64,000 bases of DNA from an uncultured Candidatus Saccharibacteria bacterium. Its GTDB lineage: Bacteria > Patescibacteriota > Minisyncoccia > Phycocordibacterales > Phycocordibacteraceae. Where the stretch lies: NCBI GenBank assembly GCA_964593365.1, contig CAZQGQ010000002.1, positions 85,671-149,670 of the forward strand, read 5' to 3'. Positions 26,724 through 61,262 of the stretch are shown piece after piece (positions within the stretch are counted from its first letter, which is position 1; every line of letters begins with the position of its first letter). The translations under genes were made by a program, and so were the position numbers. The notes beneath the pieces are model-generated. The model made no database searches. It saw nothing but the letters and a program-made list of their open reading frames with translations, and was not told where the DNA came from.

Positions 26724-27416
26724 ATGGATCAAAAGAACCCGTATTTGCTTCCGGTTGCGATCATTATTGCAGGCGCGATTCTAGCAGGCGCCATCTATCT
26801 TGTCCGGACGGGAGGAGTTATCGCAACGCCGATGGGAGACACGTCTCTTACTCGCCCTGTAGACGATACTGACCGTGTCGTTGGGAGCCCGGATGCTCCG
26901 GTCATGATCGTCGAATATTCCGATATCGACTGTGCGTACTGTAAAGACTTCCAGGCAGTTCTCGAGCAGCTTATGGCTGAGTACGGACCAGGCGGACAAG
27001 TTGCTTGGACATACAGGCACTTCCCCGTCCTTTCCCTGCATCCAAACGCAGCTCTCCATGCTGAAGCCGCAGAATGCGCAGGGTCGCTTGGTGGCACTAA
27101 TGCCTTCTTCCGCTTCATCGGTGCACTCCAGCAGGCTGCTCCTGACATCAACCAGTTCAGTCCTTCCGGATACGAAGGCGTCGTGACCTCGCTTGGCCTT
27201 TCGGTTGCCGACTTCAATAGCTGCGTTCAAAGCGACCGGTTCGTTGGAAAAGTGACAAGTGATTTTGAGAACGCGGTTGATGCTGGCGGAACAGGAACTC
27301 CTTACACGGTCATCTTAATTGAAGGAAGCGAACCGCTTTCCATTACTGGCGCTATACCCTACGCCGCGATGAAAGAGGTTATCGACCAGGCGCTTACGAA
27401 AGTCACGACGGAGTAA
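26724..27416 (+). CDS. DsbA-family thiol:disulfide oxidoreductase (BdbD-like), membrane anchored
   Basis: Redox active site DIDCAYCKDF and a cis-Pro region, with an N-terminal TM helix. Confidence 0.8.
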   Translation: MDQKNPYLLPVAIIIAGAILAGAIYLVRTGGVIATPMGDTSLTRPVDDTDRVVGSPDAPVMIVEYSDIDCAYCKDFQAVLEQLMAEYGPGGQVAWTYRHFPVLSLHPNAALHAEAAECAGSLGGTNAFFRFIGALQQAAPDINQFSPSGYEGVVTSLGLSVADFNSCVQSDRFVGKVTSDFENAVDAGGTGTPYTVILIEGSEPLSITGAIPYAAMKEVIDQALTKVTTE

Positions 27417-30204
27417 CAAGCTCAAGCACGGCATCATACGAAGACGCTTCACCTGAGCGCCACGACCCAGATAGGAGTTCTCGTACCACCGCGTCAAACT
27501 CAGCAAGAGCTTCTGCTTCTCTCTCGATGCTGACGAGAACTGGATGTTCCTTAACGCGATCAGGCCCGACCTCAATGAGTGAAGCGCATGTAGGCGCGTG
27601 ACCGCTTTCTTTTAACAAATGGACATACAGCATGAGCTGGCGGACATGCGCCTCGTCTTTTGCAGAGACAGTGCTTCCTGTCTTGAAATCAATCACGCAC
27701 TCCCCGGCAGAGGTTTCAAATAACGCATCGAGTTTCCCCTGCAAGATAACGGGAACGCCGTCAACCACGCGTGTCACCTTGAAGGCCTTCTCGACAGCAA
27801 TGGGCTTACCTTCCGGAAGCATCGTTGTCTCATAAAATGTAAGCGTGCGCTTTGCATCTCGCATGAGAGCTTCAAAGACAGCGTCTCGTGGAAGAAGCGA
27901 GAAACGAAACGCGTTTTCAAGCGTACGCTCTGACGCCGCGCTATCATTTCCTTCAAGCAAGGATGCGATACCTGCGTGGACTGCATTTCCGAATACCAGT
28001 GGCCCTTGCGGAGGCTCTTTGATACGTAGTACTCGCGAGGCGAAGAACTTGGCTGGCGAGGCAAGATAATCATTCAATGCAGAGGGCGAAAGACCATCTT
28101 CAGTCAGATAGATCTTTGAAAGACGGATAAGGAGCTCTGAGGCTTTCTCGGTGCTATGGAGTATGGGCAGCCGGGATGCTTCTACGGAGACTTCCGAAAG
28201 GCCTTCGGGCATGAGCACAGAGGCTCGACGCTCGCGTCCATCCCTGCTTTCTGCAGGATACGAGAGATACGCCTTGTCCTTGGCTCTCGTGAGTGCAACG
28301 TAGAAGAGGCGGCGGGAATCCTCAATCGACTGCTTCTGGGCAAAGGGAGACGGGATGAGCGCTGGCTTGCCGCCCCGCTCCCAGCCGTTTTCGGTCAGAT
28401 CCGGTATGACGACGTGCTTGAATTCCATGCCCTTGGCCTTGTGCGCCGTGATCACGGTGACCATTCCCTCTCGCTCGGTGACCGACTCCTTCACGAAGGA
28501 AAGCTCGTGCTCCCCTGCCTGCGCGAGCTCTTCCATCGCTTCTCGGAAGGTTGCTCCCTCTTTATGAACCGAAACCTCTTCAAGATGCATCATCAGTTTC
28601 CGTACAAGCGATATGTCATCAAGGTATTCCGCGTGCGAGAGGAAATAATCGCGCGCGCCAGATTCAGCAAATATCCTTGAGAAACACTCGATGGGCGTCT
28701 CAGCGATAGAGCGAGGAACAAGCGAGGACAACACTTCCCCGATCTGCGGGTATGCCTTGTGCAACTCTACAAGAAGCTCATGGTCGCGAGTTCGCCGAAG
28801 CATGAGGAGCATCTCCTCAGCGGGGGCTTTCCACCACGGTGCGCACAAAGCGATCCGAAGCGATCCAAAGCGGCTTGGGTCTCCAATGTATTCCATGAGC
28901 GAGAGAAGGGCTCGTGGAAGCGGACGCGAGGTAAGGGATACGTCTCCTGCGCGAAGGACCGGCACTCCTGAAGCCTGTAGCGCCTGAGCAACGAGGTCTG
29001 CGACTTCGTTCTTGCGGCTTATGACCGCGATGTCATGCGGAGCAGTTCCTTCGCTAATCAAGCCCTGAATAAGGGAGCTTATCTTCGCGCGCTCATCCAG
29101 CGGATCAGAAGCCGTAATCTTTTGAAGCGACGGCCCCTGCTCCCCTCTGGTTGCGGTAAGGCGCGGGTGCTCGCCGATAGGGGCAACGACCTCGTGCGCG
29201 GTATCCAAGATGTCTTGGAAGGAACGGAAAGATTCTGAGAGCGCTATCACTTTCGCGCGAGGAAAGAGCTCCGTAAACGAGCGGAAGCCCCCGAGGTCTG
29301 CTCCTTGGAAGCGGTAGATCGCCTGCTTCTCGTCTCCAACGACAAAGAGGTTTGGGAAATCATCCGCGGCAAGAAGCTCCAGAAGCTTATGCTGAAGCGC
29401 GTTGGCGTCCTGGTGCTCATCTGCAAGCACATACTGATACGTCTCCTGCAGCTCAGCACGAAGCGTATCATCTTCCGCTAGTCGCCCGACAAGAGTGGTG
29501 AGCATGTCAGAGAAGTCATACGTGCCCCGAGCTTCTTTGAGTTCTTGATAGCGCGTAAGGACACGAACCGCCTCATCCACTTTATCAACGCGCTCAAGCT
29601 TTTCCTGACCTTCCTTTTTGAGTTGCCCGGCCTGCGCTCCTCGCACATACACCAACGATTCATCGGCTCGTATGCGATCCCGTTCCCCCTCTCCCCAGGA
29701 AGCGTAGAGAGCAAGCGAGACATTCTCGCGAGACAAAGTCTCATGTAAACGCTTCAGGTCATCCAAATAGGTAAAGGGAGCTTTGGGTGGGCGAAGCATT
29801 TCAACATCGGCGCCCTCAAGCGCTTCCCGCAAAAGAAGAATTTGTTCCACTTCTCCCGCAAGGCGCTTGCCTTCATAGCCTGGGAAATGCTGGGGATACC
29901 GGTTCATCACAAGCTCTGCAAATCCGTGGAAGGTCGTGATTGTCACATCGCGTGCGGTCGCCTCCCCCACAAGTCCCGAGAGTCTGGTGCGCATGGTTCG
30001 TGCCGCAGAGTCGGTAAAGGTAAGCGCCAGCACGCTGTGCGCTCCCGCCTGCGTGATCTTGAGAATGTTAGCAATGCGAAGCGTTAGGACATGCGTCTTC
30101 CCAGTCCCAGGTCCTGCGATAACCAGTACGGGCCCCTCGACCGTATCGACGGCTTCCTTTTGAGGAGCATTAAGTCCCGCGTACGCCGTAGCAAACTCAG
30201 CCAT
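27403..30204 (-). CDS. UvrD/PcrA-family SF1 helicase fused to a C-terminal PD-(D/E)xK nuclease domain
   Basis: Helicase motif I AGPGTGKT and further helicase motifs. The C-terminal approx. 200 aa carry FGNAVHAGI, GKLDAL...CVIDFKTG and QLMLY, matching a RecB-like nuclease. Confidence 0.85.
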   Translation of the reverse strand: MAEFATAYAGLNAPQKEAVDTVEGPVLVIAGPGTGKTHVLTLRIANILKITQAGAHSVLALTFTDSAARTMRTRLSGLVGEATARDVTITTFHGFAELVMNRYPQHFPGYEGKRLAGEVEQILLLREALEGADVEMLRPPKAPFTYLDDLKRLHETLSRENVSLALYASWGEGERDRIRADESLVYVRGAQAGQLKKEGQEKLERVDKVDEAVRVLTRYQELKEARGTYDFSDMLTTLVGRLAEDDTLRAELQETYQYVLADEHQDANALQHKLLELLAADDFPNLFVVGDEKQAIYRFQGADLGGFRSFTELFPRAKVIALSESFRSFQDILDTAHEVVAPIGEHPRLTATRGEQGPSLQKITASDPLDERAKISSLIQGLISEGTAPHDIAVISRKNEVADLVAQALQASGVPVLRAGDVSLTSRPLPRALLSLMEYIGDPSRFGSLRIALCAPWWKAPAEEMLLMLRRTRDHELLVELHKAYPQIGEVLSSLVPRSIAETPIECFSRIFAESGARDYFLSHAEYLDDISLVRKLMMHLEEVSVHKEGATFREAMEELAQAGEHELSFVKESVTEREGMVTVITAHKAKGMEFKHVVIPDLTENGWERGGKPALIPSPFAQKQSIEDSRRLFYVALTRAKDKAYLSYPAESRDGRERRASVLMPEGLSEVSVEASRLPILHSTEKASELLIRLSKIYLTEDGLSPSALNDYLASPAKFFASRVLRIKEPPQGPLVFGNAVHAGIASLLEGNDSAASERTLENAFRFSLLPRDAVFEALMRDAKRTLTFYETTMLPEGKPIAVEKAFKVTRVVDGVPVILQGKLDALFETSAGECVIDFKTGSTVSAKDEAHVRQLMLYVHLLKESGHAPTCASLIEVGPDRVKEHPVLVSIEREAEALAEFDAVVRELLSGSWRSGEASSYDAVLELVTPS

Positions 30205-30257: not shown

Positions 30258-31517
30258 TTAGTAGCTCTTCAAACGACGCGCCTTTTCGTGCGTACGGATC
30301 TTCTCAAGCGCTTTCGCTTCAATCTGGCGGATTCGCTCGCGCGTAACGCCGAACTCGCGACCCACCTCTTCAAGGGTGTGATAGATGCCGTCAAGGAGTC
30401 CATGGCGCATTTCCAATATCTTTCGCTCTTTGGGAGAGAGGTCATCGAGGATATCGCGAACCTGTTCGGTCAAGATGCGCTCTGAGGATTCTTGGACCGG
30501 AGACGGGATCTTGTCGTCTGCAATAAAGTCACCAAGCGTTGATTTGTCATCGTCATCGGATCCGATCGGGTTTTCAAGCGAGAGCGTGTCCTGGTTGATC
30601 TTCTCGATCTGGTAGATCTTCTCAACTTCAACGCCCATCTCTACCGCAATCTCTTCAGGCTGCGCATCGCGGCCAAGCGCCTGCGACAGGCGACGCGACA
30701 CCTGCTTGTACTTAGCGATGGTTTCCACCATGTGGACAGGAATGCGGATGGTGCGGGACTGGTCGGCAAGGGCGCGAGTGATGGCCTGGCGAATCCACCA
30801 TGTTGCGTAGGTTGAGAACTTGTACCCTTTCTTCCAGTCGAACTTATCGACGGCTTTAAAGAGACCAATGTTCCCTTCTTGGATAAGGTCGAGGAGCGTC
30901 AGATCTGGAGAACGGCCGACGTATTTCTTTGCGATAGAGACCACGAGGCGAAGGTTGCTTCGTGCAAGGATGTTGCGAGCCTCGTCATCTCCAGCGTCAA
31001 TGCGCTTAGCGAGCTCGCGCTCCTCAGCCGCAGTCAGAAGTGGGTACTGGCCGATCTCACGAAGGTAGATCTGGATGGAGTCGTAGCTTGCTGAGTCGCG
31101 ACCTTTGATGTTGCGAGTTGCAAGATACTCGTCCGCATTGTCTTCGAGCATGCCGCCTTCAAGAATGTCGATACCGGTCGTGACGAAGCGCTCATAGAGC
31201 TCATCGAGGAAGTTAACGTCATCCTCAACATGCGGAAATTCCTTAAGAATCTCGCTATAGGTGATGTAGCCTCGCTCGCGCCCCTTTACGATAAGCGCTT
31301 CTGCCTTCTTCATGCGATCAGACGCTGCTGACTTTTTAGCACCCTGCACGCCAGCGCGAACGACGGCCATAGCGCGCTTTTGTACTGGAGCCTTCTTCTG
31401 CACCTTCTTAGCTTTAGGAGCCGCCTTCTTTGGCTTTGCCTTTGGCTTATGCGTCGAAGAACGCGCTGAAGATGCACGCTTGGTGGTTGTTTTTTTCTTC
31501 ATCTTAGGTGAGGCCAT
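30258..31517 (-). CDS. rpoD: RNA polymerase sigma factor, sigma-70 (RpoD)
   Basis: Regions 1.2 to 4 are present (YLREIG; region 2.4 [12 protein letters not shown]; region 4.2 [24 protein letters not shown]), with a basic N-terminal tail. Confidence 0.95.
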
Positions 31518-31544
31518 AATGAATTAAATAGTATGAAAAACCTA

Positions 31545-33212
31545 TTAAGCGAGCTTCGCGAGGCGCTCGGACGCTTCTTTGCATGCTTGAAGCGCTTGCT
31601 GTACTTCTGTATCGTCCTTGCTTGACTCAGCACGACGCAGGCGCGTCGTAGCTTGTTCAAGCGCTGCAACGAGAACGGAGCGCTCGAATGCGCTTAAGAG
31701 ATCCTGTGCTGCACGTTCTGCAGGCGACTCTCCGTAGAGAAGGCCGGCCTCAAAAAGGGCGCGCTCGGAGACAGGGTCGTCCCGTAGCGCTACACCACTA
31801 ATCCGAGCGTACTCGGCCCCGACCCATTTGGCAAGCTCGGTGCCCGGGTATGCCTGTGCGACGGCATGAATAAGCTCATCTCGCGGAGTTGCAAGCTGCG
31901 GCACGCTCGCTCCACTGGTTCCTTTGACCTCTGGTTCCTGCGGAAGCGTCTCCCCTTTTGGAAGAGAAGCACGTACTGCCTCAACGGAAGAACCAAGCGA
32001 ACGAGCAACGATGCTTACGAAGTGTTCACGCTCCAAGGGACTTTTGATCGCAGCGACTAGTGGCATCACAACGCGTTCAGCGGCAATCACGAGCTTATGC
32101 TGATCGGGCTCAGCTGCTGAGAGAACCGAGAGGAAGAACTCGATGATCGGCTCTGCTTCTTTGATACGGCGCACCAGGTCCTGCGGCGTCTCATGCGCGA
32201 GGTCTGCCGGATCCTTTCCGATAGGAAGTCGGACCGCCTTTACTCGCAAGCCTTCACGAAGCGCTGCGTGTGCGTTCTTAGCTGAGGCTGCAAGACCCGC
32301 GCGGTCCGCATCAAGGGCGAGCATCAGGTTCTCCGAATAGCGCTTGATAAGGGAGAGATGCTCACGAGAAAGCGCCGTACCAGAAAGCGCGATCGTATTC
32401 TTGAACCCGATCTGATGCATAAGCAGGAGATCGAACTGCCCCTCAACCAAGAGCGTGAATCCACGCTCCCGGATCGCATCCTTGGCCCGGTCCATCCCGA
32501 AGAGAACGCCTGACTTTCGGAAGAGGATCGTTTCAGGAGAATTGAGGTATTTGGCAGGATCCTCGCTTACAAGCGCGCGGCCAGTGAATGCGACTACCCG
32601 CCCTGCGGCGTCTCGTATCGGGAACATCAACCGGTTACGGAACCGATCGTAGTAGGTGCCCCGCTTCCCGTCTGCCTCTTTGATAAGTCCTGCTGACAGG
32701 AGCTCGTCGTTTGAGAACCCTGCAGTCGTGAGCTCTTCCAAAAGCCCTCGCCAGGCGTCAGGCGCATATCCTAAGTTCCACGATGCGATATTTTCTTTGG
32801 TGAGACCGCGCGAAAGCGCATAGCTATACGCAGCGCCCTTCAGGTCGAGATTCCTCGCATAGAAGCTTTCTGCGCGAGCCATTGCCTCTCGGATGCGCTC
32901 AACCTTCTTCGAGTCCTTGTTTCCTGCGCTGTATTCAAGCGTGACACCCGCTTTCTCTGCAAGAATCTTCAACGCTCCCTTGAAGTCCACGCCCTCCATC
33001 TTCTCGATGAAGCTAAACGCGTCTCCCCCCTGCCCCGATGAGAAGCAGTAGTAAGTGCCCCGGTCAGGCGAGACGAAGAACGACGGCGTCTTCTCCTTAT
33101 TGAAGGGAGAGAGTCCTTTGTAGTTTCTGCCAGCCTTAACAAGCTTGACGTAGGGGGTGACCACGTCGACGATCGAGAGCTTGTCTTTTATTTGTTGGAC
33201 GGTGTCAGCCAT
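31545..33212 (-). CDS. dnaG: DNA primase
   Basis: CHC2 zinc finger (YYCFSSGQGGDAFSF) and a Toprim domain. Start taken at MADTVQQIKDKL (track start 33269). Confidence 0.85.
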   Translation of the reverse strand: MADTVQQIKDKLSIVDVVTPYVKLVKAGRNYKGLSPFNKEKTPSFFVSPDRGTYYCFSSGQGGDAFSFIEKMEGVDFKGALKILAEKAGVTLEYSAGNKDSKKVERIREAMARAESFYARNLDLKGAAYSYALSRGLTKENIASWNLGYAPDAWRGLLEELTTAGFSNDELLSAGLIKEADGKRGTYYDRFRNRLMFPIRDAAGRVVAFTGRALVSEDPAKYLNSPETILFRKSGVLFGMDRAKDAIRERGFTLLVEGQFDLLLMHQIGFKNTIALSGTALSREHLSLIKRYSENLMLALDADRAGLAASAKNAHAALREGLRVKAVRLPIGKDPADLAHETPQDLVRRIKEAEPIIEFFLSVLSAAEPDQHKLVIAAERVVMPLVAAIKSPLEREHFVSIVARSLGSSVEAVRASLPKGETLPQEPEVKGTSGASVPQLATPRDELIHAVAQAYPGTELAKWVGAEYARISGVALRDDPVSERALFEAGLLYGESPAERAAQDLLSAFERSVLVAALEQATTRLRRAESSKDDTEVQQALQACKEASERLAKLA

Positions 33213-33272
33213 GGTGTTGATTGTACGCGAGAGAAACCACGAACCCGCCAGAGGCGGGTCCAAGGTCAAACA

Positions 33273-40400: not shown

Positions 40401-41060
40401 CTACTTCCTCCCCTTCTTCCACTCATCGATTTTCGCCTGATGCCCGCTTTGTAGGACGCTCGGGACTTTGTACTTCTTCCCTTCCCATTCGATTGAATCA
40501 GGCCGTGTATATACTTCCCCGCTTGAAATCCTGCGCTCCTCTACTGATTCATCTTTTCCGAGCACGCCTGGGATGCGTCTGGTAACTGCGTCCACTATTG
40601 CCATGGCAGGCACTTCTCCACCTGTGAGCACTGCCTCCCCGACCGAATAACGCTTCAATGTTCCAAGTGTCTTCAGGATCTTTGCAGCCCTCTCATCAAT
40701 ACCCTCGTAGCGCCCGCAGACCAGGACTACATCATCAAACGAGATGAGTTTGTCAGCTTCTTTATTATCAAATGCCTTTGCGCCCGGCTGAAACCAGATG
40801 ATTGCCGCCTTTCCCTTCTTACGTCCGATCGCTTTCTTCACGGCTTTTGCTACAGGAAGTGCTGTCATGACCATTCCTGGACCTCCTCCATATGGCCGTT
40901 CGTCTACCTTGCCCCATCTATTGGTTACAAAATCGCGAGGGCTTTGGTAGGAAACGGAAATCTTCTTGTTCTTTCGAGCGCGGCCAAGGATAGAAGCGGA
41001 CAGATACGGCTCACAGGCTTCTGGGAAAAGCGTGATGAGGTGGAAACGAAGTGTGCTCAT
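40401..41060 (-). CDS. trmD: tRNA (guanine37-N1)-methyltransferase
   Basis: SPOUT-fold TrmD motifs LITLFPE, RPYGGGPGMV and CGRYEGIDER. Confidence 0.9.
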   Translation of the reverse strand: MSTLRFHLITLFPEACEPYLSASILGRARKNKKISVSYQSPRDFVTNRWGKVDERPYGGGPGMVMTALPVAKAVKKAIGRKKGKAAIIWFQPGAKAFDNKEADKLISFDDVVLVCGRYEGIDERAAKILKTLGTLKRYSVGEAVLTGGEVPAMAIVDAVTRRIPGVLGKDESVEERRISSGEVYTRPDSIEWEGKKYKVPSVLQSGHQAKIDEWKKGRK

Positions 41061-41443
41061 ATTTCATCAGGTCCGTGGTATGCATTTATAACGTCTACGA
41101 AGTTGTCGCGGCCGCTTGGACGATTAGAGCCAGTAAAGAACAGTCTCGCTTCGCCTTCCACCGTTTCTCGTATCTTGTTGAAGGATCTGTTGAAAAGATC
41201 TAAAGGGAGCTCCCGTACTGCAATCGTCTGGAACGAAGCGTCTTTTTGAAGTGATTCGATTCGTCCGGCTACCTGGGTACCAGGTCCATACAGCGCATAG
41301 GTTTTCTTTGCGGTGCGAAAAAGGGCCATGCATGGCTTGTAATCAAACTTGTTTATATCTGCAAGAAACACAGAAAGTGCTTCTTCATTCACCCCTTCAC
41401 GCTTAAAAGGTTGCATTCCTTCTAGCGGATCTGATTTTCCCAT
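41057..41443 (-). CDS. Hypothetical protein occupying the rimM position of the rpsP operon; weak nucleotidyl-cyclase-like motifs
   Basis: 128 aa. It has no PRC-barrel or RimM signature. Short stretches VFLADINKFD and YALYGPGTQVAGRIESL resemble class III cyclase motifs, but the domain is too short. Confidence 0.3.
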   Translation of the reverse strand: MGKSDPLEGMQPFKREGVNEEALSVFLADINKFDYKPCMALFRTAKKTYALYGPGTQVAGRIESLQKDASFQTIAVRELPLDLFNRSFNKIRETVEGEARLFFTGSNRPSGRDNFVDVINAYHGPDEI

Positions 41444-41447
41444 ATCT

Positions 41448-41756
41448 TTATCCTAACGCATCGACGACCTGATCGACTGATTTAGCGTCTCCTTCTCCAA
41501 AGCGCTTGCCGCCAACCGGCTCATTGATCTTCAGGTTCACCCGGGCGTTATGCTTCATACCAACCACGCGAAGAAGGGTGCGTAGTGCCTTAGCAATGTT
41601 TCCATCCTTGCCGATTATCTTGCCCATATCGTCGGGCGAGACGGTAAGGGTCAACAGCACGCCCATCTCATCAACGCCGCGGGTAATCGCGACCTGGTCA
41701 GGATTATCAACAAGGGCTTTAACAACGTACTCGAGAAATTCGTGGTCTTGGTCCAT
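41448..41756 (-). CDS. KH-domain RNA-binding protein (YlqC/UPF0109 family)
   Basis: 102 aa; KH fold with GXXG motif IGKDGNIAKALR. Confidence 0.8.
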   Translation of the reverse strand: MDQDHEFLEYVVKALVDNPDQVAITRGVDEMGVLLTLTVSPDDMGKIIGKDGNIAKALRTLLRVVGMKHNARVNLKINEPVGGKRFGEGDAKSVDQVVDALG

Positions 41757-41826
41757 AAAGTGGTTCAGTCGTTAAGGGATATTCAGATAGACACTGTACG
41801 CACACGCACCCATAGGCGCGATGAAG

Positions 41827-42282
41827 TTAGGCTGCTGGAGCCTCAGCGGCAACTGCGTCAGCAGGCGCTTCCGCAGGAGCAGCTTCAACTGGAGTCTCAG
41901 CAGGAACTGCTTCAGCTGCAACTTCAGCTTCTTCGGGAAGAGGGGCTACTGCGGCTGCAGCAACGGGAGCTGCGGCAGGCGCTACCTCTTCAGTTCCCTC
42001 CTTCTTAATCGGAGATTTCTTTGAAAGGACGTTTACCTTCTTGCCTTCAAGGATGCCCTTCGTGATAAGGAGGTTATTAAGGGAAGGAGAAACCTGGGCT
42101 CCCTTGCCGATCCAATCCTTGATACGGTCTCCTTCTGCGCTGAAAGCTTTGGTCTTTGGGTTGTAGGTGCCGACGAGGTCGACATAGGTGCCGGCCTTAG
42201 GGCCAGAGGTTTTTTCGAGTACGACGATACGGAACGCTGGGTCGTTCGTGCGGCCGATTCGCTGAAAACGGATCATCAACAT
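41827..42282 (-). CDS. rpsP: 30S ribosomal protein S16 with Ala/Pro/Glu-rich C-terminal extension
   Basis: The N-terminal approx. 85 aa match bS16 (MLMIRFQRIGRTNDPAFRIVV...). The C-terminal approx. 60 aa are a low-complexity A/P/E/V repeat. Confidence 0.9.
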   Translation of the reverse strand: MLMIRFQRIGRTNDPAFRIVVLEKTSGPKAGTYVDLVGTYNPKTKAFSAEGDRIKDWIGKGAQVSPSLNNLLITKGILEGKKVNVLSKKSPIKKEGTEEVAPAAAPVAAAAVAPLPEEAEVAAEAVPAETPVEAAPAEAPADAVAAEAPAA

Positions 42283-46848: not shown

Positions 46849-49056
46849 TTATTTTGCTACCTGCATTGCCTCTTCGAACTTGACTGAGAGGAGCTTGCTG
46901 ATGCCGTCGCCTCCCATAGTGACGCCGTACAAAATACCTGCACGACCCATGGTCTCGCGGTTGTGCGTGATAACGACGAGCTGCGAGCGCTTGGAGAGGC
47001 TATCGATCATGTCTCCGTAGCGGCGCGAGTTAGCTTCGTCGAGAGCCGCGTCGGTCTCATCAAGGATCAAAAATGGCGGCGGATTCACCTGGCTCATCGC
47101 GAAGATGAGCGCGATTGAGGTAAGTGCGCGCTCGCCTCCTGAAAGCTGCATAAGAGACTGCAGCCGTTTCTTAGGGAGATTCACCTGCACCTCAAGGCCA
47201 GGGCGTACCTCTCGCTGTACTTCTTCTGGAGCTTCGTCTTCTTCGTCCTCTTCAGCAGGAGCGATATCCTCAAGCACGAGCTTTGCTCCTCCTCCCCCGA
47301 ACATGAGCGCGAAGAACTCGGTAAACGATTCGTTCACCTTCGCCAGTCCTTCCGCAAAGTTCTTCGCAAGCTCCTCATCAAGATCGCGAATCAGCTCCTC
47401 GAGGCCGATGACTGAGTTGGCAAGATCTTGAAGCTCGGTAGCAAGGAACTCCTCGCGGTTCTTGGTTTCCATATATTCGCTTCGCACTTCTTCTCCGGTG
47501 CCTCCCGCCTCTTCAAGACGAATCTTCAGGCGCTCAAGGGTTCGCTTGCGGTCTTCTTGCACTTTGCGGTCTTCCTCGGGAAGTTCAGACAGCGGCTCGT
47601 ATGAAAAGGCTTGGCTTCCGGCAAGCGCGAGTACTTCTGCTCGCTCGCGTTCAAGCTCCTCGCCAAGGTAATTTAATTCTTTGATTCTTGCTTCAATGCG
47701 CGCGAGTGAAGATTCGAGCTTTGCGCGCGTTTCTGCAAGCTCAAGTATTCGGTGCTGATTCTCACGTCCGGTCTCCTCATGCGCCGTGCGCTCCTCGCGT
47801 GCCTTAGCAAGCACCTTCCGCGCTTCCTCTACGCGAAGCGCTATTGCGCGATCTTTATCTGAAAGCGCCTCTCGCTCTTTCTCAAACTTCTGCACGGCCT
47901 GCTCCTCATCTGCAAGATAGTCGCTCTCGCTTGCCCCATAGCGGTCAAAGAAGGCCATGACCGCAGAGCGAAGCGCTCGAAGGGCTGCAGAGAATGCGGA
48001 GATATCTGCTGTTTCAGACAGTGCGGTCTGTCGCTCTACTTCGTCTTTGAGGACCTTCAGGTCTTCGCGCGGGACTTTCACATACGGCTCGCGGGCTAGG
48101 AGTGCACTGCGACGCTTGGCCTCAGACAACGCTCCTTCAATACGACCCATGTCTCGCGAGAGATCGGACTGTTCTGCGATTGCACGATCAAGCTCGCGCT
48201 CTGCCTGGCGCACAGCTTCAATGCGCTTCATTCCTTCGCTCTCTCCCGTCGTCTCTCGCTCAAACACTGAAATTTCTTGCTCGGCAACAGCAAGGCGCGC
48301 TGACGTGTCGCGTTCCTCAGCTTCAGTCTTTACCCGCTCTACCGCAAGGTATTTTTCTTCTATTGCAAAGTATTCGCGCGCGGAGCCTGCAAGGTCTCGC
48401 CCGAGCTCTTCTGCGCGCTCCAACTTCTCTACCTGCTTCTGCAAGAACTTCAGGTGCGGAGAAAGTTCCCGACGAAGGGCTTCTACTTCCCGTACGTTGT
48501 CGCGAGTCTTATCGAGCTTTCGGATCGCTTCCTGCTTCTTGAATTCAAAGACCTTAAGGCCGAGCGCGTCCTCGAGCATGGCTCGGCGCTCACGCGGAGC
48601 TGAAAGCAAGATACGATCCGCTTCTCCTTGAGAAATGATGTGGTGACCGGTCTCGCCGATGTTTGCGGAAGCGAGGAGTTCCTGGATATCGCGGAGGCGA
48701 ACCTTGGAACCGTTGATGGAGTACTCGCTTGCTCCGTCTCGGAATACCGCACGCTCTATCTGTACCTCGTCAAAATCGATCTTAGGGAAGATGCGCTTGG
48801 TGTTATCAAAGATGATCACTACCGATGCACGGTTCGCGCGAGGGTTCGTATGTGAGCCCGCAAAAATAAGATCCTCGCTTCGCTTGCCGCGCATGCTTTT
48901 CATGGATTGTTCGCCAAGCGCGAAGCGGAAGGCTTCTGCGACGTTTGATTTACCTGAACCGTTAGGGCCCACAATGGCAGTAGCTGCCGACGAGAAATCG
49001 AGCACGGTTTTCCGTGCGAACGATTTGAACCCGACGACTTCAAGCCGCTTCAGCAT
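46849..49056 (-). CDS. smc: SMC-family ATPase, short form (approx. 736 aa, no recognisable hinge domain)
   Basis: SMC N-terminal head MLKRLEVVGFKSF...GPNGSGKSN, a long coiled coil, and a C-terminal signature LSGGERALTSIALIFA plus Walker B FLILDETDAALD. The track ORF extends to 49491, but the true start is the internal Met at 49056, with a -10 TATAAT 7 nt upstream. Confidence 0.8.
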   Translation of the reverse strand: MLKRLEVVGFKSFARKTVLDFSSAATAIVGPNGSGKSNVAEAFRFALGEQSMKSMRGKRSEDLIFAGSHTNPRANRASVVIIFDNTKRIFPKIDFDEVQIERAVFRDGASEYSINGSKVRLRDIQELLASANIGETGHHIISQGEADRILLSAPRERRAMLEDALGLKVFEFKKQEAIRKLDKTRDNVREVEALRRELSPHLKFLQKQVEKLERAEELGRDLAGSAREYFAIEEKYLAVERVKTEAEERDTSARLAVAEQEISVFERETTGESEGMKRIEAVRQAERELDRAIAEQSDLSRDMGRIEGALSEAKRRSALLAREPYVKVPREDLKVLKDEVERQTALSETADISAFSAALRALRSAVMAFFDRYGASESDYLADEEQAVQKFEKEREALSDKDRAIALRVEEARKVLAKAREERTAHEETGRENQHRILELAETRAKLESSLARIEARIKELNYLGEELERERAEVLALAGSQAFSYEPLSELPEEDRKVQEDRKRTLERLKIRLEEAGGTGEEVRSEYMETKNREEFLATELQDLANSVIGLEELIRDLDEELAKNFAEGLAKVNESFTEFFALMFGGGGAKLVLEDIAPAEEDEEDEAPEEVQREVRPGLEVQVNLPKKRLQSLMQLSGGERALTSIALIFAMSQVNPPPFLILDETDAALDEANSRRYGDMIDSLSKRSQLVVITHNRETMGRAGILYGVTMGGDGISKLLSVKFEEAMQVAK

Positions 49057-49071
49057 TGAGGCAATTATACC

Positions 49072-49116
49072 GTATATAAATGTGTTGACGCGCGCCCGTA
49101 TCAGGTAGCGCGCGTC
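49072..49116. repeat. 45-bp element containing a perfect inverted repeat GACGCGCGC-N12-GCGCGCGTC (copy 1)
   Basis: It lies between the end of small membrane gene 49146..49460 and the SMC promoter. The sequence is gtata-aaa-gtgttgacgcgcgcccgtatcaggtagcgcgcgtc. Confidence 0.8.
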
Positions 49117-49145
49117 TAAATCACCGTGAGGTGATGGGTGCCGTC

Positions 49146-49460
49146 TTAGGCGTATCTTGTTGGTTTCATCATAAAGCTGATGAGACCGACAAATCCCAAC
49201 AATACGGCGACTGCGGTGGTAATCGTCGTCAGAAGGCTCCAGTGGACGAACTGCGTGTGGGTGTCCTGGAATAGAAACACCGTAGCCCACATGATCAGGG
49301 CTGCCGCCGTCATGATGCAGCGCGAACCGCGAGGCCATCCGAAGCGAACTCCGAATCGCTCCGCGACAAGCACTACAAAGACAACGACAGTCGCCGGAAC
49401 CGCGAGCAGCAGCGCGAACTGAACTTCTAACGGAGAAAACGTGAAGAACGTTTGGGTCAT
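49146..49460 (-). CDS. Small membrane protein (3 TM), paralog A
   Basis: 104 aa with SD AAGGGG. It is similar in length and topology to the 49631..49915 ORF. Confidence 0.5.
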   Translation of the reverse strand: MTQTFFTFSPLEVQFALLLAVPATVVVFVVLVAERFGVRFGWPRGSRCIMTAAALIMWATVFLFQDTHTQFVHWSLLTTITTAVAVLLGFVGLISFMMKPTRYA

Positions 49461-49630: not shown

Positions 49631-49915
49631 TTATGCCGGCCCGTATTTTCTCCACCATCGAAGCACGAGGCACCCGATGAAATAGAGCATGGCCAAGCCG
49701 AACAGTGTGGTCCCGATGTCCCACGGTTTATAGTCAGTCCAAGCGGACTCGAACAGACATGCCACAGAACCTGCGGAACACGCCGTCGCGAGAAAGAACG
49801 CTTGAAGGATTGGCTTACGCCGCTCCATCGCCGCCATCAGAAGAGCAATGCCTCCGATGATGGCAACCAACGCAACCGTGAGAATAATAACGGGTTCGGA
49901 CGAGAATATCGTCAT
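49631..49915 (-). CDS. Small membrane protein (3 TM), paralog B
   Basis: ATG start at MTIFSSEPV (the track start 49942 is a GTG). Confidence 0.45.
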   Translation of the reverse strand: MTIFSSEPVIILTVALVAIIGGIALLMAAMERRKPILQAFFLATACSAGSVACLFESAWTDYKPWDIGTTLFGLAMLYFIGCLVLRWWRKYGPA

Positions 49916-49968
49916 GAGTGTTACCCCATACCTCTGTACCACACAGAGGCTTCGAAAGAACTATAACA

Positions 49969-50652
49969 CTACCATCCGCTCTTGTCTAGTCCGGCCTGGG
50001 CCGCTGCTTGTTCCGCTTCCTGCTTGCTCTTCCCTACCCCTCGAGCGATCTCCTTCTCACCTATGTAAACGCCAACAGTGAAATCGCGGTCATGGTCCGG
50101 ACCGTCTTCGCGGATCGTCTTGTATGCAGGAGTGATTCCCTTATGTTCCTGCGCTGCTTCCTGGAACTTACTTTTCGCATCCTGCCACGCGCGCGCCTCG
50201 ATGACCGGATCGAGCTTCGGGAACAAATGCTTTATGAGAAAGGCGTCAGCAGCTTCATATCCCTGATCAAGATAGAGGGCGCCAAGCAATGCCTCGAAAG
50301 CGTTTGCGAGAATGATCTGACGAGCACGTCCCGTGTCGCGCTTTTCCCCGCGCGAGAGAAGCAGCATGTCATTGATCCCGAGCTTCTCGGCAGTCTCTGC
50401 AAGCGAGACGGTATTCACAAGAGCCGCACGAAAGGCAGTCAGTTCTCCCTCCGGCTTTTGCGGAAACTTCGTGAAAAGAAACTGGGTCGCGGAGAGCTCG
50501 AGCACGGCATCCCCCAGAAACTCAAGCCGCTCGTTATGCGCCTTCGAGCTCTTGTTCTCGTTCAGGTAGGAGCGGTGCGTCAGCGCCTCCTCGAAGAGGT
50601 CGAGGTTAGAAAAAGTGAGCCCGAGCTTTTGCGCACACGCATTAAAATCCAT
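49969..50652 (-). CDS. rnc: Ribonuclease III
   Basis: RNase III signature ERLEFLGDAVLEL and a C-terminal dsRBD. Confidence 0.9.
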   Translation of the reverse strand: MDFNACAQKLGLTFSNLDLFEEALTHRSYLNENKSSKAHNERLEFLGDAVLELSATQFLFTKFPQKPEGELTAFRAALVNTVSLAETAEKLGINDMLLLSRGEKRDTGRARQIILANAFEALLGALYLDQGYEAADAFLIKHLFPKLDPVIEARAWQDAKSKFQEAAQEHKGITPAYKTIREDGPDHDRDFTVGVYIGEKEIARGVGKSKQEAEQAAAQAGLDKSGW

Positions 50653-50685: not shown

Positions 50686-51585
50686 CTACTTTCCCGAGCG
50701 GTCGAGCAGTTTCTGGACCGCGGTCGTCACTATGGGGAGCATGTCGTCGTAGAAGTTGAGGTTGATGATGTCTTGGAGCCTAAACCACTTGGCGTCGTCT
50801 AGGCCACCCTTCCCTTCTTCAAGCTTCAGCGGGATGTACTCGGCTTTGGCAAGGAAATACGTCACGTGCTTTCGGAACTTTCCTTTCTCCGGGTGCGAAG
50901 CGACGTATTCGTTCTCTCCGATCACATCCTCAAGGATGATATCGATTCCCATCTCTTCCTTTATTTCCCGCACCGTTCCTGCAGACAGTTCCTCCCCTTC
51001 CCACAAGCGTCCCTTAGAGAGAGTCCAGCGGCCAAACACATCGTGTACCAAGGCAAGGTAATACTGGCCTTCGTGGAAAGAATAGACGACTGCGCCGCCA
51101 AGCTCCTCAACCGGAAGCTCCTTGTGCGGCTTCTTCTCGCGCTTCCCTTGCTCGTCTTTGCCCGGGCTTCCGATTTCCTTATAGACGGCACCAAGCACTC
51201 CGTTAATGAATCGTCCGGATGATTCTCCGCCAAACACCTTGGCAAGCTCAATGGCTTCGTTAATGGCTACTTTAGGTGGAACCTGCGCGCGGTCTGAGAA
51301 CAAAAGCTCGTACAAGCCGATGCGAAGAATGTTGCGGTCGATAGCTGCGATCTTTTCAATGGGCCACTCAGGAGCGGCTTTCGCGATGATAAGGTCGAGA
51401 TCAGTTTTCTTGGCGATCACGCCCGTAAGGAGGTTTTCCATAAACGGCCGATCCGTATCGCTTCCCCCGAACTCTCCGAAGTTTCGCGCAAGCGCCTCGG
51501 GAGCATCGGTATCGGGTACAGCGGCTGTGTCCCACTCGAAGAGCGTTTGTAATACTACCGAACGGGCGAGATGCCGATTAGCCAT
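50686..51585 (-). CDS. nusB: NusB-like antitermination domain fused to a C-terminal NUDIX hydrolase domain
   Basis: The N-terminal approx. 150 aa form a NusB fold (RNILRIGLYELLF...). The C-terminal domain has a complete Nudix box, GRLWEGEELSAGTVREIKEEMGI. Confidence 0.8.
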   Translation of the reverse strand: MANRHLARSVVLQTLFEWDTAAVPDTDAPEALARNFGEFGGSDTDRPFMENLLTGVIAKKTDLDLIIAKAAPEWPIEKIAAIDRNILRIGLYELLFSDRAQVPPKVAINEAIELAKVFGGESSGRFINGVLGAVYKEIGSPGKDEQGKREKKPHKELPVEELGGAVVYSFHEGQYYLALVHDVFGRWTLSKGRLWEGEELSAGTVREIKEEMGIDIILEDVIGENEYVASHPEKGKFRKHVTYFLAKAEYIPLKLEEGKGGLDDAKWFRLQDIINLNFYDDMLPIVTTAVQKLLDRSGK

Positions 51586-51661
51586 ATATGGAAAGAACTC
51601 CTCGTAGCGTACCAGGAGGATGCGTCGCGCGCAAAATGCGCGAATTTAGAAAATGGGGAAA

Positions 51662-51997
51662 CTATGCTCCGCCGCCAAATCCCGAGCGACTCTTAGCGCG
51701 ATCTTGCACCATGCGGCCAACGAGTCCTGGCTTCTTTACCTTCTCCTTCTCTTCCTTCTCGACATGGACATGGCCTTCTGCAGGTCCCATCTTATCGGCC
51801 TTCGTGCTTTCCTTTACCTTCTTGACCTTCTTAGGAGCGATGACCTTCCCGCGGTACATACCAGTAGACTCATCGATGCGATGAGGCAGGCGAAGAGTGC
51901 CGCTGTCCTTATCCTTCACGAGCTTCATGTTCTTCAAAGCGTGATGGCTTCGGCGGTTCTTGGTATGGGAACTGGTGTGGCGCATTCGTACAGACAT
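51662..51997 (-). CDS. rpmF: 50S ribosomal protein L32 with approx. 55-aa Lys/Glu-rich C-terminal extension
   Basis: The N-terminus MSVRMRHTSSHTKNRRSHHAL is the bL32 signature. The extension is rich in K/E/V. Confidence 0.8.
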   Translation of the reverse strand: MSVRMRHTSSHTKNRRSHHALKNMKLVKDKDSGTLRLPHRIDESTGMYRGKVIAPKKVKKVKESTKADKMGPAEGHVHVEKEEKEKVKKPGLVGRMVQDRAKSRSGFGGGA

Positions 51998-52025: not shown

Positions 52026-52622
52026 TTACGCAAAGGCTTTGCAGAAACTGCGTCGATGGACGCTTGAGAGCCCGTGCTCTCGGATAGCCGCTTGGTGCGC
52101 CTTGGTGCCGTATCCCTTGTGACGCTCAAAGCCGTAGGAAGGATAGTCGGCCGCGAGAGAGACCATATACCTGTCTCGGACCACTTTTGCGGCAACAGAG
52201 GCGAGCATGATGGCCGGAATGGTCGAGTCTCCCCGCACCACCGTTTCCTGCTCATACCCTTCTGGCGCATGGAGGAGTCCATCCAAAAATACCCGAGCTT
52301 CAAGGGGGTCCGGCGCAAGTTCGCGAACGCCCGCATGCACGGCACTCACTACCGCCTTCGTGATCCCAGCTCGATCAATAACAGACGCGCTCACTGACTT
52401 CACGCAAAAGCGGATCTCCCCCGCCTCCTTTCGTTCAAGCAAGAGAGCGAATATCCGTTCCCGATTCTTCTCGGAAAGTTGTTTGGAATCATTGAGGCCC
52501 GGGAACGCTTCCAGGAAATCAAATCCCTCAGTAGCGGCGACTACGCCAACCGCGACAGGGCCCGCCAAGGGACCCCGGCCCGCTTCGTCAACCCCGAGTA
52601 TCAGCTTCATTTTTCTCGCCAT
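52026..52622 (-). CDS. rnhB: Ribonuclease HII
   Basis: GVDEAGRGPLAGPV active-site motif. The likely start is MKLILGV at 52610. Confidence 0.9.
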   Translation of the reverse strand: MARKMKLILGVDEAGRGPLAGPVAVGVVAATEGFDFLEAFPGLNDSKQLSEKNRERIFALLLERKEAGEIRFCVKSVSASVIDRAGITKAVVSAVHAGVRELAPDPLEARVFLDGLLHAPEGYEQETVVRGDSTIPAIMLASVAAKVVRDRYMVSLAADYPSYGFERHKGYGTKAHQAAIREHGLSSVHRRSFCKAFA

Positions 52623-58634: not shown

Positions 58635-60008
58635 TTATGCTCCAAGAGCAAGCTTTGCGCCGCGGATGCCGGTCATGCGGCTTCCTTCGATCATCGCGTC
58701 GATGCGAGAGGCGATACCGTCGGTGTCGCTCACTGCTGCACGAATCTCTGAAAGGAATTCCTCAATGCCCGTACCGTTAGCTGCTGCCGTTCGAAGCTGC
58801 TCGATAACGTTCTCGTTGTCATTGGCTTCAAGGGCCGTGACGAATGCGTTTACGTCTGTTGCAGATTCTTCTTCGGTCTCGTCAGCAAGCTCAGAGTAAG
58901 AAGCGTTTCCTGCGTAGGCTGGGACGAGGGAGCGGAACATGCCCTTTGAGAACATGAAGTACGCTACGCCGCCTGCACCTGCGATAAGAAGCACCCAGTA
59001 CGCCATGATTGCAGGAGAGATGTCTCCAAGACCCGTGTAAGGGATCGAAGAGAGGTAGACGACCTGCGGAGGGTTCTGCGGTGGCTCATCAGTGAAGACG
59101 GTGCTTGAGAACGCATTGTCGTTGTCATCATCGTCCTCATCAACGTTCACCGTAACCGAACAGGTTGCTTCGTCTCCGTCGTTATCTTCTACCGTCATGC
59201 GGAAGGTCGTGTCCTCGTCAACGGTTACGCGCTCTTCGCCGCCGTCCTCGTCAACTGAACCGATACCCTGGTTGATGCTAGCCTCTTCTGCGTCATCGGT
59301 CTCCCATGAGAGTGTTACGCGGTCTCCCTCGTCAACGCTCTTGTCGGAAGCCTCAAGGTCGCAAGATGGCTCGTCATCGTTGTTGTTATCGTTGTCATCA
59401 TCATCGTCGTCATCATCGTTTGAACCGTTGGTGATGTTGATGTTCGAATTGTTGTTCTGATCATCGTCATCATCATTGTTGTTGCTATTGGATCCTGAGT
59501 AGATGCCCGGGCCGCCGACATACTTGTTCTTGTATGCGTAGTCACCGAAGTCAGGGTAATTCTGGTTCTGGTTGGTATTCGTGCTGTTCTCCTGGTTCGT
59601 GTTGTTCTCGTTTGAGATTGCAACGCCGCCGATGTAGTTGTCGTTTCCGTTCTGATTGATGTTGACGTTGTTGTTGTAGGTGGTCTCGTTGTCGTTGTCC
59701 TGCCAGCTAAAGTTGAGGTTAAGGCCGCCTCCATAGCTCGATCCGTAGTTAGAACCCGATCCGTAGTTGTAGGTCGGAGTCTTCGGATAGCTGTAGGTGG
59801 GCTTGTACCCTCCGTAGCTACCGCAACACGAAGTCGTGCCGTAGATCGTGCCAGCGCTTGAGTAGCCGCTGCCACTTCCGTAGCTGCCACCAAGATCGTA
59901 CGTGCTGTACGCAAGAGCAGCAGACGGGATGGCAAAGCCAACACCGACGACCACCGCGATCACTGCAAGAACCTTTGCGAACCCATTGCCCGTGATGTTT
60001 TGTTTCAT
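58635..60008 (-). CDS. Surface protein with extreme low-complexity regions, an acidic Cys-bracketed domain, a TM helix and a C-terminal cytoplasmic tail
   Basis: A signal peptide is followed by G/S/Y-rich, N/Q-rich and poly-D tracts. An approx. 75-aa domain runs from CDLEASDKSVDEGDRVTLSWE to ATCSVTVNVDED. Then comes IPYTG plus a TM helix, with about 100 aa C-terminal to it. Confidence 0.6.
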   Translation of the reverse strand: MKQNITGNGFAKVLAVIAVVVGVGFAIPSAALAYSTYDLGGSYGSGSGYSSAGTIYGTTSCCGSYGGYKPTYSYPKTPTYNYGSGSNYGSSYGGGLNLNFSWQDNDNETTYNNNVNINQNGNDNYIGGVAISNENNTNQENSTNTNQNQNYPDFGDYAYKNKYVGGPGIYSGSNSNNNDDDDDQNNNSNINITNGSNDDDDDDDDNDNNNDDEPSCDLEASDKSVDEGDRVTLSWETDDAEEASINQGIGSVDEDGGEERVTVDEDTTFRMTVEDNDGDEATCSVTVNVDEDDDDNDNAFSSTVFTDEPPQNPPQVVYLSSIPYTGLGDISPAIMAYWVLLIAGAGGVAYFMFSKGMFRSLVPAYAGNASYSELADETEEESATDVNAFVTALEANDNENVIEQLRTAAANGTGIEEFLSEIRAAVSDTDGIASRIDAMIEGSRMTGIRGAKLALGA

Positions 60009-60167: not shown

Positions 60168-61262
60168 TTAGCGTCGGTCTCGAATCTGAGGCCAATCGCG
60201 TCCAGAGAGCGTATGTGTGCCGTCCTGGAGCGATTCCCAACGAACAAGGGCGGGTGCGTAGCTAATGCCACGGCGGCGCTCTTCTGCGGTTGGAACTGGG
60301 CAGATAACCACCCATCCGCGCTTGTCGGCATCGAGCATCGGAACTGAGATGGATCCGTTTTGTCCTTGGACAAACGCAGCATATGTTTCCATTCCAATAT
60401 CTGCGCCTGCAACGTCACGGATACCAAGCTGGCGTCGGTTTCGCTGAATAACATCAAAGGCAGCGCGACGAGGGTCGCAGGCGTCCCCGATGCAAAGGAG
60501 CGTTGATGGCTCAACATCTGGCCAGCACACGTCTGCGATCGTCGCTGATGCTGATTCGTCGGTAGGAACTACCGCTCCGACCACGAAGAAGCCGCGGTTT
60601 GGCATTCCCTCGATGACGATGTCTGCACATTCAACCTGAGGACGAGGCGTTTCAGGAGTTGGGACGTTCTCAAGGGTCAAGAACTGGACAGCGATGTTGT
60701 TGCAGATCTCAAGGTGCGTGAAGATAGCGACCTTGCTTGGATCAGCCTCATTTCGAACTACCCAGCGTTCAGCCTCAAGCATGGTGCCGAGGTGGGTATC
60801 CTCTCCCCGAGCTGGGGTTCGCACGACTCCGCGCCGAAGATCGAGGTTCACTCGACCGCCTTCGTTTACGAGAGCCTGGCGTCCACCGCTGGTGGAAATT
60901 GGACCCTGCGTCATGAGGTCGAATCGCTCGCCGTTAGGATCAAGCGTGTCCGGGTCTACTCCCTGAATGAGGGCAGTATCGAAGTTTGATGGTCCTTCGA
61001 TGATGCGGCGAGCCTGGGCAGACATAGCTGCGTCAAACCACGCTGGATGGCGTGCGCCTTCAAACATGGTGACTGCCTCTGCTTTGGTACCTCGGTACGG
61101 ATTGTCTCGGAGATATTCCAAAGTAACTGCCCCGCGCTCTGCTTCTTGCACACGCTCCTGAGCTGCTGCTGGAGTAGTAGTCGCAGCTTCTGCAGCACCA
61201 AGACCAATTGCTGCGGCAGCCATTGCTCTCCAATTAAATCCTCCTGGTTCTTTGCGGGCCAT
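60168..61262 (-). CDS. Secreted hypothetical protein
   Basis: 364 aa with an Ala-rich signal-like N-terminus. Several Cys pairs are present but no recognisable motif. Confidence 0.5.
   Translation of the reverse strand: MARKEPGGFNWRAMAAAAIGLGAAEAATTTPAAAQERVQEAERGAVTLEYLRDNPYRGTKAEAVTMFEGARHPAWFDAAMSAQARRIIEGPSNFDTALIQGVDPDTLDPNGERFDLMTQGPISTSGGRQALVNEGGRVNLDLRRGVVRTPARGEDTHLGTMLEAERWVVRNEADPSKVAIFTHLEICNNIAVQFLTLENVPTPETPRPQVECADIVIEGMPNRGFFVVGAVVPTDESASATIADVCWPDVEPSTLLCIGDACDPRRAAFDVIQRNRRQLGIRDVAGADIGMETYAAFVQGQNGSISVPMLDADKRGWVVICPVPTAEERRRGISYAPALVRWESLQDGTHTLSGRDWPQIRDRR

Follow-up and report, generated by a model that had tools for sequence, protein, structure and literature searches.

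The locus described here raises the question of why the transcription antitermination factor NusB should be joined to a Nudix hydrolase domain, and whether that domain serves as an enzyme or in another capacity. The gene, which we refer to as nusB::nudix, lies in a 64,000 nt stretch of contig CAZQGQ010000002.1 (assembly GCA_964593365.1) from an uncultured Candidatus Saccharibacteria bacterium; the whole of this stretch was analysed and is called the window below. An initial annotation had proposed that a single 299 aa open reading frame (ORF) encodes a complete NusB domain followed by a Nudix domain with an intact catalytic box. That reading was borne out by Pfam, by the NCBIfam model TIGR01951 and by inspection of the motif; the location given for the ORF was right, and only its strand, which is minus, had to be added (Table 1). 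The gene proved to belong to an ancient family of NusB–Nudix fusions in which, judging from aligned sequences, a putative ligand pocket is retained and the catalytic residues are often lost.

Pfam assigned residues 7–136 of the protein to the NusB family (PF01029; E 1.3e-33, 116.6 bits against a cutoff of 23.1), with a match spanning positions 3–133 of the 133-position profile, and residues 184–276 to the NUDIX family (PF00293; E 1e-9, 38.9 bits against a cutoff of 21.1). The same 299 aa protein, identical letter for letter, was found on at least ten contigs and in at least three Joint Genome Institute (JGI) metagenomes, and the gene neighbourhood was alike on each of the largest of these contigs (647–659 kb). 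The initial annotation had questioned whether the junction between the domains might be a frameshift or a chimera, and we found a continuous two-domain ORF both on these contigs and in hundreds of homologues. The chance that nusB::nudix is an assembly chimera, a frameshift or a read-through artefact is negligible, these being ruled out by the identical ORF in independent assemblies, by 80 of 80 species genomes and by hundreds of homologous clusters; it is a real two-domain gene.

The distribution of the architecture was assessed in two collections. A homologue search of 5.8 billion clusters was followed by examination of the best 120 proteins, all of which were approximately 300 aa in length and all of which (120/120) contained both Pfam domains. 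Where a source label was given, it was only 'NusB' (from Patescibacteria, Kaiserbacteria, Paceibacterota and Parcubacteria). A scan of GTDB, with one genome per species, yielded at least 597 relatives of NusB. The best 80 species loci were analysed, and every one (80/80) encoded the fusion over its full length (query residues 1 to ~297); they came from Kaiser-, Adler-, Lloyd-, Nomura- and Zambryskibacteria and from metagenome-assembled genomes labelled Paceibacterota, Parcubacteria or Minisyncoccia. With a second profile, built from the most divergent fused members (26–41% identical to each other), 119 of the top 120 matches were fused according to Pfam, including proteins of Moran- and Tagabacteria, and the exception, P0165, carries a Nudix domain too degenerate for a precomputed Pfam match. 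We conclude that the fusion is ancient and is fixed in the Paceibacteria (Parcubacteria). The suggestion in the initial annotation that such a fusion would be a Rosetta-stone hint of a functional link between NusB and Nudix enzymes was a fair one, since the fusion is fixed and ancient and not an assembly chimera.

A single candidate for an ancestral, unfused pair of nusB and nudix genes came to light and was rejected. At positions 542–1459 of contig L087 (GCA_013565675.1, JACCDV010735530.1), a nusB of 133 aa and a nudix of 141 aa are called separately between rpmF and rnc. The split consists of one in-frame TAA at the codon of the conserved Tyr135, giving GAV*KE for GAVYKE, after which the frame continues, and it represents either a nonsense mutation or a sequencing error. 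Another unusual member, P0209 (577 aa), starts with ~316 aa of unannotated N-terminal extension; its NusB domain, which comes next, is only partial, and the Nudix domain is last.

The N-terminal domain looks, by its sequence, like a true and functional NusB equivalog. It scored 123.2 bits against TIGR01951, the NusB equivalog model, for which the cutoff is 88.35; the N-terminal 150 aa covered Escherichia coli NusB end to end (E ~1e-17), and the solved NusB structures of E. coli, Aquifex, Thermotoga and Mycobacterium tuberculosis were among its sequence matches. An AlphaFold2 model was built from a 42-sequence alignment and had a mean predicted local distance difference test score (pLDDT) of 92 and a predicted template modelling score (pTM) of 0.64. 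It consisted of a seven-helix NusB domain, a linker and an alpha/beta/alpha Nudix domain, the NusB helices spanning residues 4–20, 25–39, 43–58, 60–70, 81–96, 104–119 and 121–138 with pLDDT >90. In the Aquifex NusB–NusE–BoxA structure the BoxA site lies along the C-terminal helix alpha7, where F122 stacks on BoxA U8 (PMC3177189); the aligned residue here, F126, is invariant among the fused homologues. The likeness to E. coli NusB thus comprises the full-length alignment of the N-terminal 138 aa, the seven-helix fold and the BoxA-stacking Phe of alpha7, to which the fusion adds a C-terminal part of 160 aa (linker and Nudix domain). No second NusB-like ORF was found within the window.

Since helix alpha7 runs directly into the linker, the connection to the Nudix domain starts at the BoxA-binding site. 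The linker was modelled with low confidence (pLDDT <50 for residues 144–150), and homologues differ in its length. The model suggests that the two domains are flexibly tethered without fixed packing, and the pTM of 0.64 fits this arrangement.

The Nudix fold occupies residues 159–298 of the model, with pLDDT >90. In Foldseek comparisons the top match was the Aquifex Ap4A (diadenosine tetraphosphate) hydrolase 3i7u, with a template modelling (TM) score of 0.85–0.88 within an overall range of 0.84–0.88 for Nudix structures; it was followed in order by Rv2985/MutT1, Ndx1, the Ap4A hydrolases of Caenorhabditis elegans, human and Chlamydia, and Dcp2. Sequence searches gave Thermus thermophilus Ndx1 (an Ap6A hydrolase), the Aquifex Ap4A hydrolase, Chlamydia CT771, mycobacterial MutT1 and Dcp2 as the best solved relatives. 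When a profile of the fused-family Nudix domain was compared with the PDB, 3i7u was matched over the full domain (E 1.4e-20), ahead of CT771 (1.9e-14), Ndx1 (2.9e-14), C. elegans 1kt9 (4e-11) and human NUDT2 (5e-11), and Dcp2 was again among the matches. Orthology to several better-known Nudix enzymes was considered and rejected: the RppH models NF001936 and NF001938 gave 18.4 bits against a cutoff of 118 and 12.5 bits against 116, the NudC model NF001299 gave 17 bits against 158, with the zinc-binding and N-terminal NudC domains absent by Pfam, and the NCBIfam models for MutT and NudI were far under their cutoffs. As the sequence, profile and fold matches agree and the equivalog models fail, we assign the Nudix domain, on these comparisons, to the clade of ApnA hydrolases; it is not an orthologue of known RNA-decapping or (p)ppGpp-active enzymes. 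The NAD-cap and (p)ppGpp substrates suggested in the initial annotation accordingly found no specific support, since the nearest solved relatives are Ap4A and Ap6A hydrolases and the NudC and RppH models fall far below their cutoffs.

Compared by sequence and fold, the ApnA hydrolases (Aquifex aq_158, 3I7U; T. thermophilus Ndx1, 1VC8; C. elegans, 1KT9; NUDT2; CT771; and the Nudix domain of MutT1/Rv2985) are the best matches over the whole domain. Common to them and the fused domain are a loop rich in Lys, a C-terminal Tyr that lines up with Y121 of C. elegans and, ahead of the box, a W-T-x-x-K-G motif. The fused domain differs from them in being only ~25% identical, in its attachment to NusB and in having a degenerate box in about half of its members. 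Searched alone against 1.84 billion cluster representatives at 50% identity, the Nudix domain gave only 866 matches at E<=1e-3, a number that fell to 137 with a cutoff of 1e-10, and the full-length matches were mostly NusB fusions. No other Nudix gene of the ApnA-hydrolase clade was found within the window.

The searches also returned relatives in other settings. P0254 (379 aa) combines a same-clade Nudix domain, in which box E16 is changed to Lys (E16->K), with the helix-turn-helix domains Sigma70_r4 and Bac_DnaA_C, and is a second case in which this Nudix clade is found on a nucleic-acid-binding scaffold. P0150 (L088:4001-4453) is a stand-alone Nudix relative of 150 aa, 39% identical and with a canonical box; its neighbours are an integrase, a DNA methylase and a Phage_rep_O-like gene, which looks like a phage or mobile-element context. 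Two further candidates for stand-alone relatives, P0133 (L084) and P0145, were discarded. Both are on short contigs and combine an unrelated N-terminus (MutT-like in P0133) with the C-terminal half of a fused-family Nudix domain, and they are probably assembly chimeras.

The Nudix box of the window protein, GRLWEGEELSAGTVREIKEEMGI, fits the consensus GX5EX7REUXEEXGU at every defined position. Across 355 distinct fused homologues all of the defining residues were kept in 182 proteins (51%), and the box was perturbed in 49%. The box glutamate E16 (residue 207) was Glu in 58%, and was otherwise Lys (76 sequences), Val (31), Ala (16), Ile (9) or Gly (7); conservation of E7, R15 and E19 was 85–89%. 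In E. coli RppH the counterpart of E16, E53, is one of two Mg ligands of the Nudix motif, and Q37, which stands just before box G1 and corresponds to K191 here, touches the metal and the phosphates (PMC7144940). Perturbation extended to close relatives: of 120 with 72% or more identity to the query, 38 had Lys in place of E16, and one subgroup had a four-residue deletion within the box, GGIEAG----EGTKQKIEAEIGV. Natural examples of the two kinds of change are P0041, an E16K relative with the box GRLAEGEDIAAGTTRKIKEEIGL, and P0071, which has a box deletion. In the small clade of the query itself (P0001–P0009) the canonical box was mostly kept, and the Nudix domain of this organism may therefore be an active hydrolase.

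Conservation of other positions was far higher, reaching 99.7% for W187 and W267, 99.4% for D182, K191 and Y279, 98.9% for Y227, 98.3% for F184 and 97% for K239. K191, K234-G235-K236..K239 and Y279, which are 85–99% conserved, align with K36, K79-G80-K81..K83 and Y121 of the C. elegans Ap4A hydrolase, residues that we take to be phosphate-binding or adenine-stacking. Fitch parsimony was applied to a neighbour-joining tree from whose construction the box columns had been left out. The minimum number of changes was 40 for E16 (Glu/non-Glu), 38 for E19, 27 for R15 and 24 for E7; the contrast between E16 and E20 (5 changes), K191 (2) or Y279 (2) is large. Mean pairwise identity was 59% for the Nudix domain and 66% for NusB, and the Nudix domain is under strong purifying selection. 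The alignments thus point to a fused family in which a putative ligand pocket is conserved and catalytic residues are often lost.

The gene order on the minus strand of the window is rnhB – rpmF – nusB::nudix – rnc – two hydrophobic ORFs – smc, with intergenic gaps of 76 nt between rpmF and nusB and 33 nt between nusB and rnc. No convincing terminator was detected between nusB and rnc or rpmF, the number of candidate sites being no greater than in shuffled sequences. In the 80 species loci, the L32 gene was directly upstream and the RNase III gene directly downstream in essentially every one; distances of '+1600' in this comparison reflect overlapping stop-to-stop ORFs, and the genes are therefore adjacent. 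The set rnhB-rpmF-nusB::nudix-rnc was kept at all 80 loci, and smc usually came next. The order rpmF – nusB::nudix – rnc – smc was retained around the most divergent fused genes (31–41% identity). Because this order has been kept, we regard the operon that links the fusion to a ribosomal protein and a pre-rRNA-cutting enzyme as old and stable. The rpmF–nusB–rnc context differs from that of E. coli nusB, where the arrangement is ribH-nusB-thiL.

Table 1. Features of nusB::nudix, its operon and other parts of the 64 kb window
Feature	Position in window	Strand	Details
nusB::nudix ORF	50686..51585	minus	299 aa plus stop codon; ATG start; no internal stops
Shine–Dalgarno-like GAGGAG	51598..51603	minus	12 nt 5' of the nusB::nudix ATG; read from the sequence
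NusB domain, aa 1–138	51172..51585	minus	Pfam, TIGR01951, E. coli NusB alignment, AlphaFold2
Phe126 codon	51208..51210	minus	Aligned with F122 of E. coli/Aquifex NusB
Linker, aa 139–156, SPGKDEQGKREKKPHKEL	51118..51171	minus	Lys/Glu-rich; ~18 residues
Nudix-fold domain, aa 157–299	50689..51117	minus	Assigned to the Ap4A/ApnA-hydrolase clade by Pfam, Foldseek and family profile against the PDB
Nudix box, aa 192–214, GRLWEGEELSAGTVREIKEEMGI	50944..51012	minus	Canonical here; degenerate in about half of homologues
rnhB (RNase HII)	52026..52622	minus	Upstream of rpmF, same orientation
rpmF (ribosomal protein L32)	51662..51997	minus	111 aa; directly upstream of nusB::nudix; Pfam L32p
rnc (RNase III)	49969..50652	minus	33 nt downstream of nusB::nudix; Pfam
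Small hydrophobic ORFs (104, 103 aa)	49146-49460, 49631-49942	minus	Between rnc and smc; no Pfam match
SMC-like ATPase	46849..49338	minus	Downstream of rnc; start codon uncertain
MASE1 hybrid histidine kinase with receiver domain	9898-11952	plus	
Ribonucleotide reductase with ATP-cone	13192-16047	minus	
UvrD-type helicase fused to PD-(D/E)XK nuclease	27403-30204	minus	
dnaG-rpoD	30258-33269	minus	
rpsP-KH(KhpA)-unknown-trmD	40401-42282	minus	
Large ORFs (457, 364 aa)	58635-60008, 60168-61262	minus	No Pfam match

Several details of the neighbouring genes were recorded. The Pfam L32p match covers only residues 6–53 of the window L32, the remainder being a Lys-rich C-terminal extension, and gene callers differ in the L32 start (88 or 111 aa in L001 and L002). 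A sigma-70-like promoter match (49988-49960, minus strand) stands ahead of the hydrophobic ORF at 49631-49942. In a divergent clade of fused genes, smc is followed immediately by a gene for a SET-domain protein of 135–140 aa (L085:7711-8118, L086:7567-7989). Across the 64 kb window (positions 1–64000), ARAGORN detected no tRNA and no Rfam family, rRNA included, reached the gathering threshold; no BoxA context emerged from these scans.

A number of known systems offer partial parallels to the fusion. A parallel in behaviour is NrtR, in which members with perturbed Nudix signatures are inactive sensors of an effector, ADP-ribose, hydrolase activity is present in a member whose signature is intact, and effector binding is the role that has been conserved (PMC2330246). 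NrtR and AraR, like the fused family, combine a Nudix domain with a nucleic-acid-binding domain and show a mixture of intact and perturbed signatures, and their structures (3GZ8 and 5BS6) were among the PDB matches of our Nudix domain. However, the partner in NrtR and AraR is a C-terminal winged helix-turn-helix domain and the Nudix domain is derived from ADP-ribose pyrophosphatases, whereas here the partner is an N-terminal NusB and the Nudix domain appears to be derived from ApnA hydrolases; the parallel is one of logic and behaviour, by analogy, and not of family membership. RppH, the bacterial RNA 5' pyrophosphohydrolase and Np4A decapping enzyme, is a Nudix enzyme of ApnA-hydrolase ancestry and can plausibly be likened in function to those fusions whose box is intact, although it is a free-standing protein of which the fusion is not an orthologue. 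RsmB/Sun, the 16S rRNA m5C methyltransferase, provides a precedent for a NusB-fold RNA-binding N-terminal domain joined to an enzymatic domain with rRNA as its substrate. Unlike RsmB/Sun, the fusion has no methyltransferase domain, and its NusB part is not a divergent RsmB N-terminal domain: RsmB models gave 20–61 bits against cutoffs of 269–540 (for example 60.8 against 319), with the match limited to residues 30–153. Dcp2, an mRNA decapping enzyme, resembles the fusion in that a hinge joins its helical N-terminal domain to a Nudix domain, which was among our sequence and fold matches; in contrast, it is eukaryotic, its regulatory N-terminal domain is unrelated to NusB, and full-length superposition is poor (root mean square deviation ~12 Å).

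These observations lead us to propose that the protein would be the organism's own NusB, the S10- and BoxA-binding factor of rRNA transcription antitermination, and that its Nudix domain would act as a recognition or effector module, held beside the BoxA site on a flexible linker of ~18 residues. We favour recognition because the putative pocket is conserved while the metal-binding catalytic glutamates are not. Candidate ligands would be a dinucleoside polyphosphate of the ApnA type, a related nucleotide, or the 5' end (Np4-capped or triphosphate) of the BoxA-containing nascent rRNA leader, and we infer that ligand binding would be coupled to the part that NusB–S10–BoxA plays in the synthesis of rRNA and in its processing by RNase III. 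Hydrolysis would be optional: in lineages with an intact box, this organism included, the bound ligand would probably also be hydrolysed, as in active NrtR members. Taken as a whole, this proposal is one that we hold tentatively, at somewhat less than even confidence.

Several points weigh against a recognition module. Conservation of box E20 (98%) and G1 (97%) is high, and pure binding would need neither residue. Variant Nudix boxes still catalyse in some families, or carry out other chemistry, so that the loss of E16 is no proof of inactivity. The residues of the putative pocket were assigned by sequence alignment to Ap4A hydrolases. Finally, relatives of two query sets are over-represented among the homologues sampled, and the neighbour-joining tree is approximate, making the counts of independent changes a rough lower-bound estimate.

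The alternative that survives best is that the Nudix domain is kept for hydrolysis at the transcription complex. NusB–S10 bound to BoxA would place a pyrophosphohydrolase similar to RppH or the decapping enzymes near the 5' terminus of the rRNA leader as it is being transcribed, where it could remove Np4N or NAD caps, convert triphosphate to monophosphate ends, or clear Ap4A or (p)ppGpp locally. The canonical box found here and in half of the homologues speaks for such an enzyme, as do the near-invariance of E20, the kinship of ApnA hydrolases with the RNA 5'-end enzymes RppH and Dcp2 (the latter among our PDB matches), the start of the linker at the BoxA-binding helix, and the shared operon with RNase III, which fits a role in RNA processing. 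However, E16 is replaced by Lys, Val, Ala, Ile or Gly in 42% of the homologues through at least 40 changes, E7, R15 and E19 also change often, and the four-residue box deletion occurs in close relatives (identity to the query of 72% or more), yet the domain is under strong purifying selection. The RppH and NudC models, at 12–18 bits against cutoffs of 116–158, give no help to this idea either. Nucleotide hydrolysis coupled to transcription, the function suggested in the initial annotation, is hence not supported as the conserved property of a family in which only 51% of 355 members keep a canonical box, only 58% keep E16 as Glu and in-box deletions occur. We consider a conserved enzymatic role rather unlikely.

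If catalysis is dispensable, the Nudix fold might instead be a non-enzymatic structural module that contacts RNA polymerase, S10, NusA/NusG or RNase III. Strong conservation of a domain whose catalytic residues appear dispensable would be expected of such a module. SuhB, which has an inositol-monophosphatase fold, is a non-enzymatic part of the E. coli rRNA antitermination complex, and the reduced genomes of the candidate phyla radiation (CPR) may be without accessory factors. Against this, the best-kept residues (K191, the K-G-K..K loop and Y279) align with positions that bind phosphate and base in Ap4A hydrolases and RppH, and therefore favour a ligand pocket over a new protein interface, and AlphaFold2 predicts no confident packing between the domains (pTM 0.64). 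A purely structural role is in our view improbable.

Less probable still is an incidental fusion, in which a housekeeping ApnA hydrolase was joined to NusB and the two halves work independently. Small genomes do gather fusions, the linker is disordered, and no contact between the domains is predicted. However, the fusion has been kept down to ~30% identity and no genuine unfused state was found (the L087 split being a single TAA), and a free housekeeping hydrolase would not be expected to lose its catalytic residues repeatedly while remaining conserved.

In the literature searched, we found no published description of a NusB–Nudix fusion. The architecture itself is already visible in precomputed Pfam annotations, and what is new is the recognition of a NusB with a class-wide accessory Nudix domain; because every one of these proteins is named simply NusB, the second domain is invisible in public annotation.

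NusB is a core factor of rRNA antitermination and ribosome biogenesis, and CPR bacteria control ribosome synthesis from minimal genomes. A class-wide domain placed beside the BoxA-binding helix offers a concrete and testable handle on this process, and a recognition module of the kind that we prefer could tie alarmones of the Ap4A type, or the chemistry of RNA 5' ends, to rRNA synthesis and RNase III processing. The occurrence of intact and degenerate boxes side by side represents a natural experiment on the passage from enzyme fold to sensor, and would be a second case of the NrtR logic. We further speculate, as a more specific and quite unlikely form of our proposal, that in Paceibacteria a NusB–S10–BoxA switch would be gated directly by an Ap4A-like nucleotide, or by an Np4N or triphosphate RNA 5' end, bound in the Nudix pocket; the signal would be reset through hydrolysis in members whose box is intact, and those with a degenerate box would only sense it. 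If true, such a switch would represent a previously unknown link between alarmones and rRNA synthesis in ultra-small bacteria.

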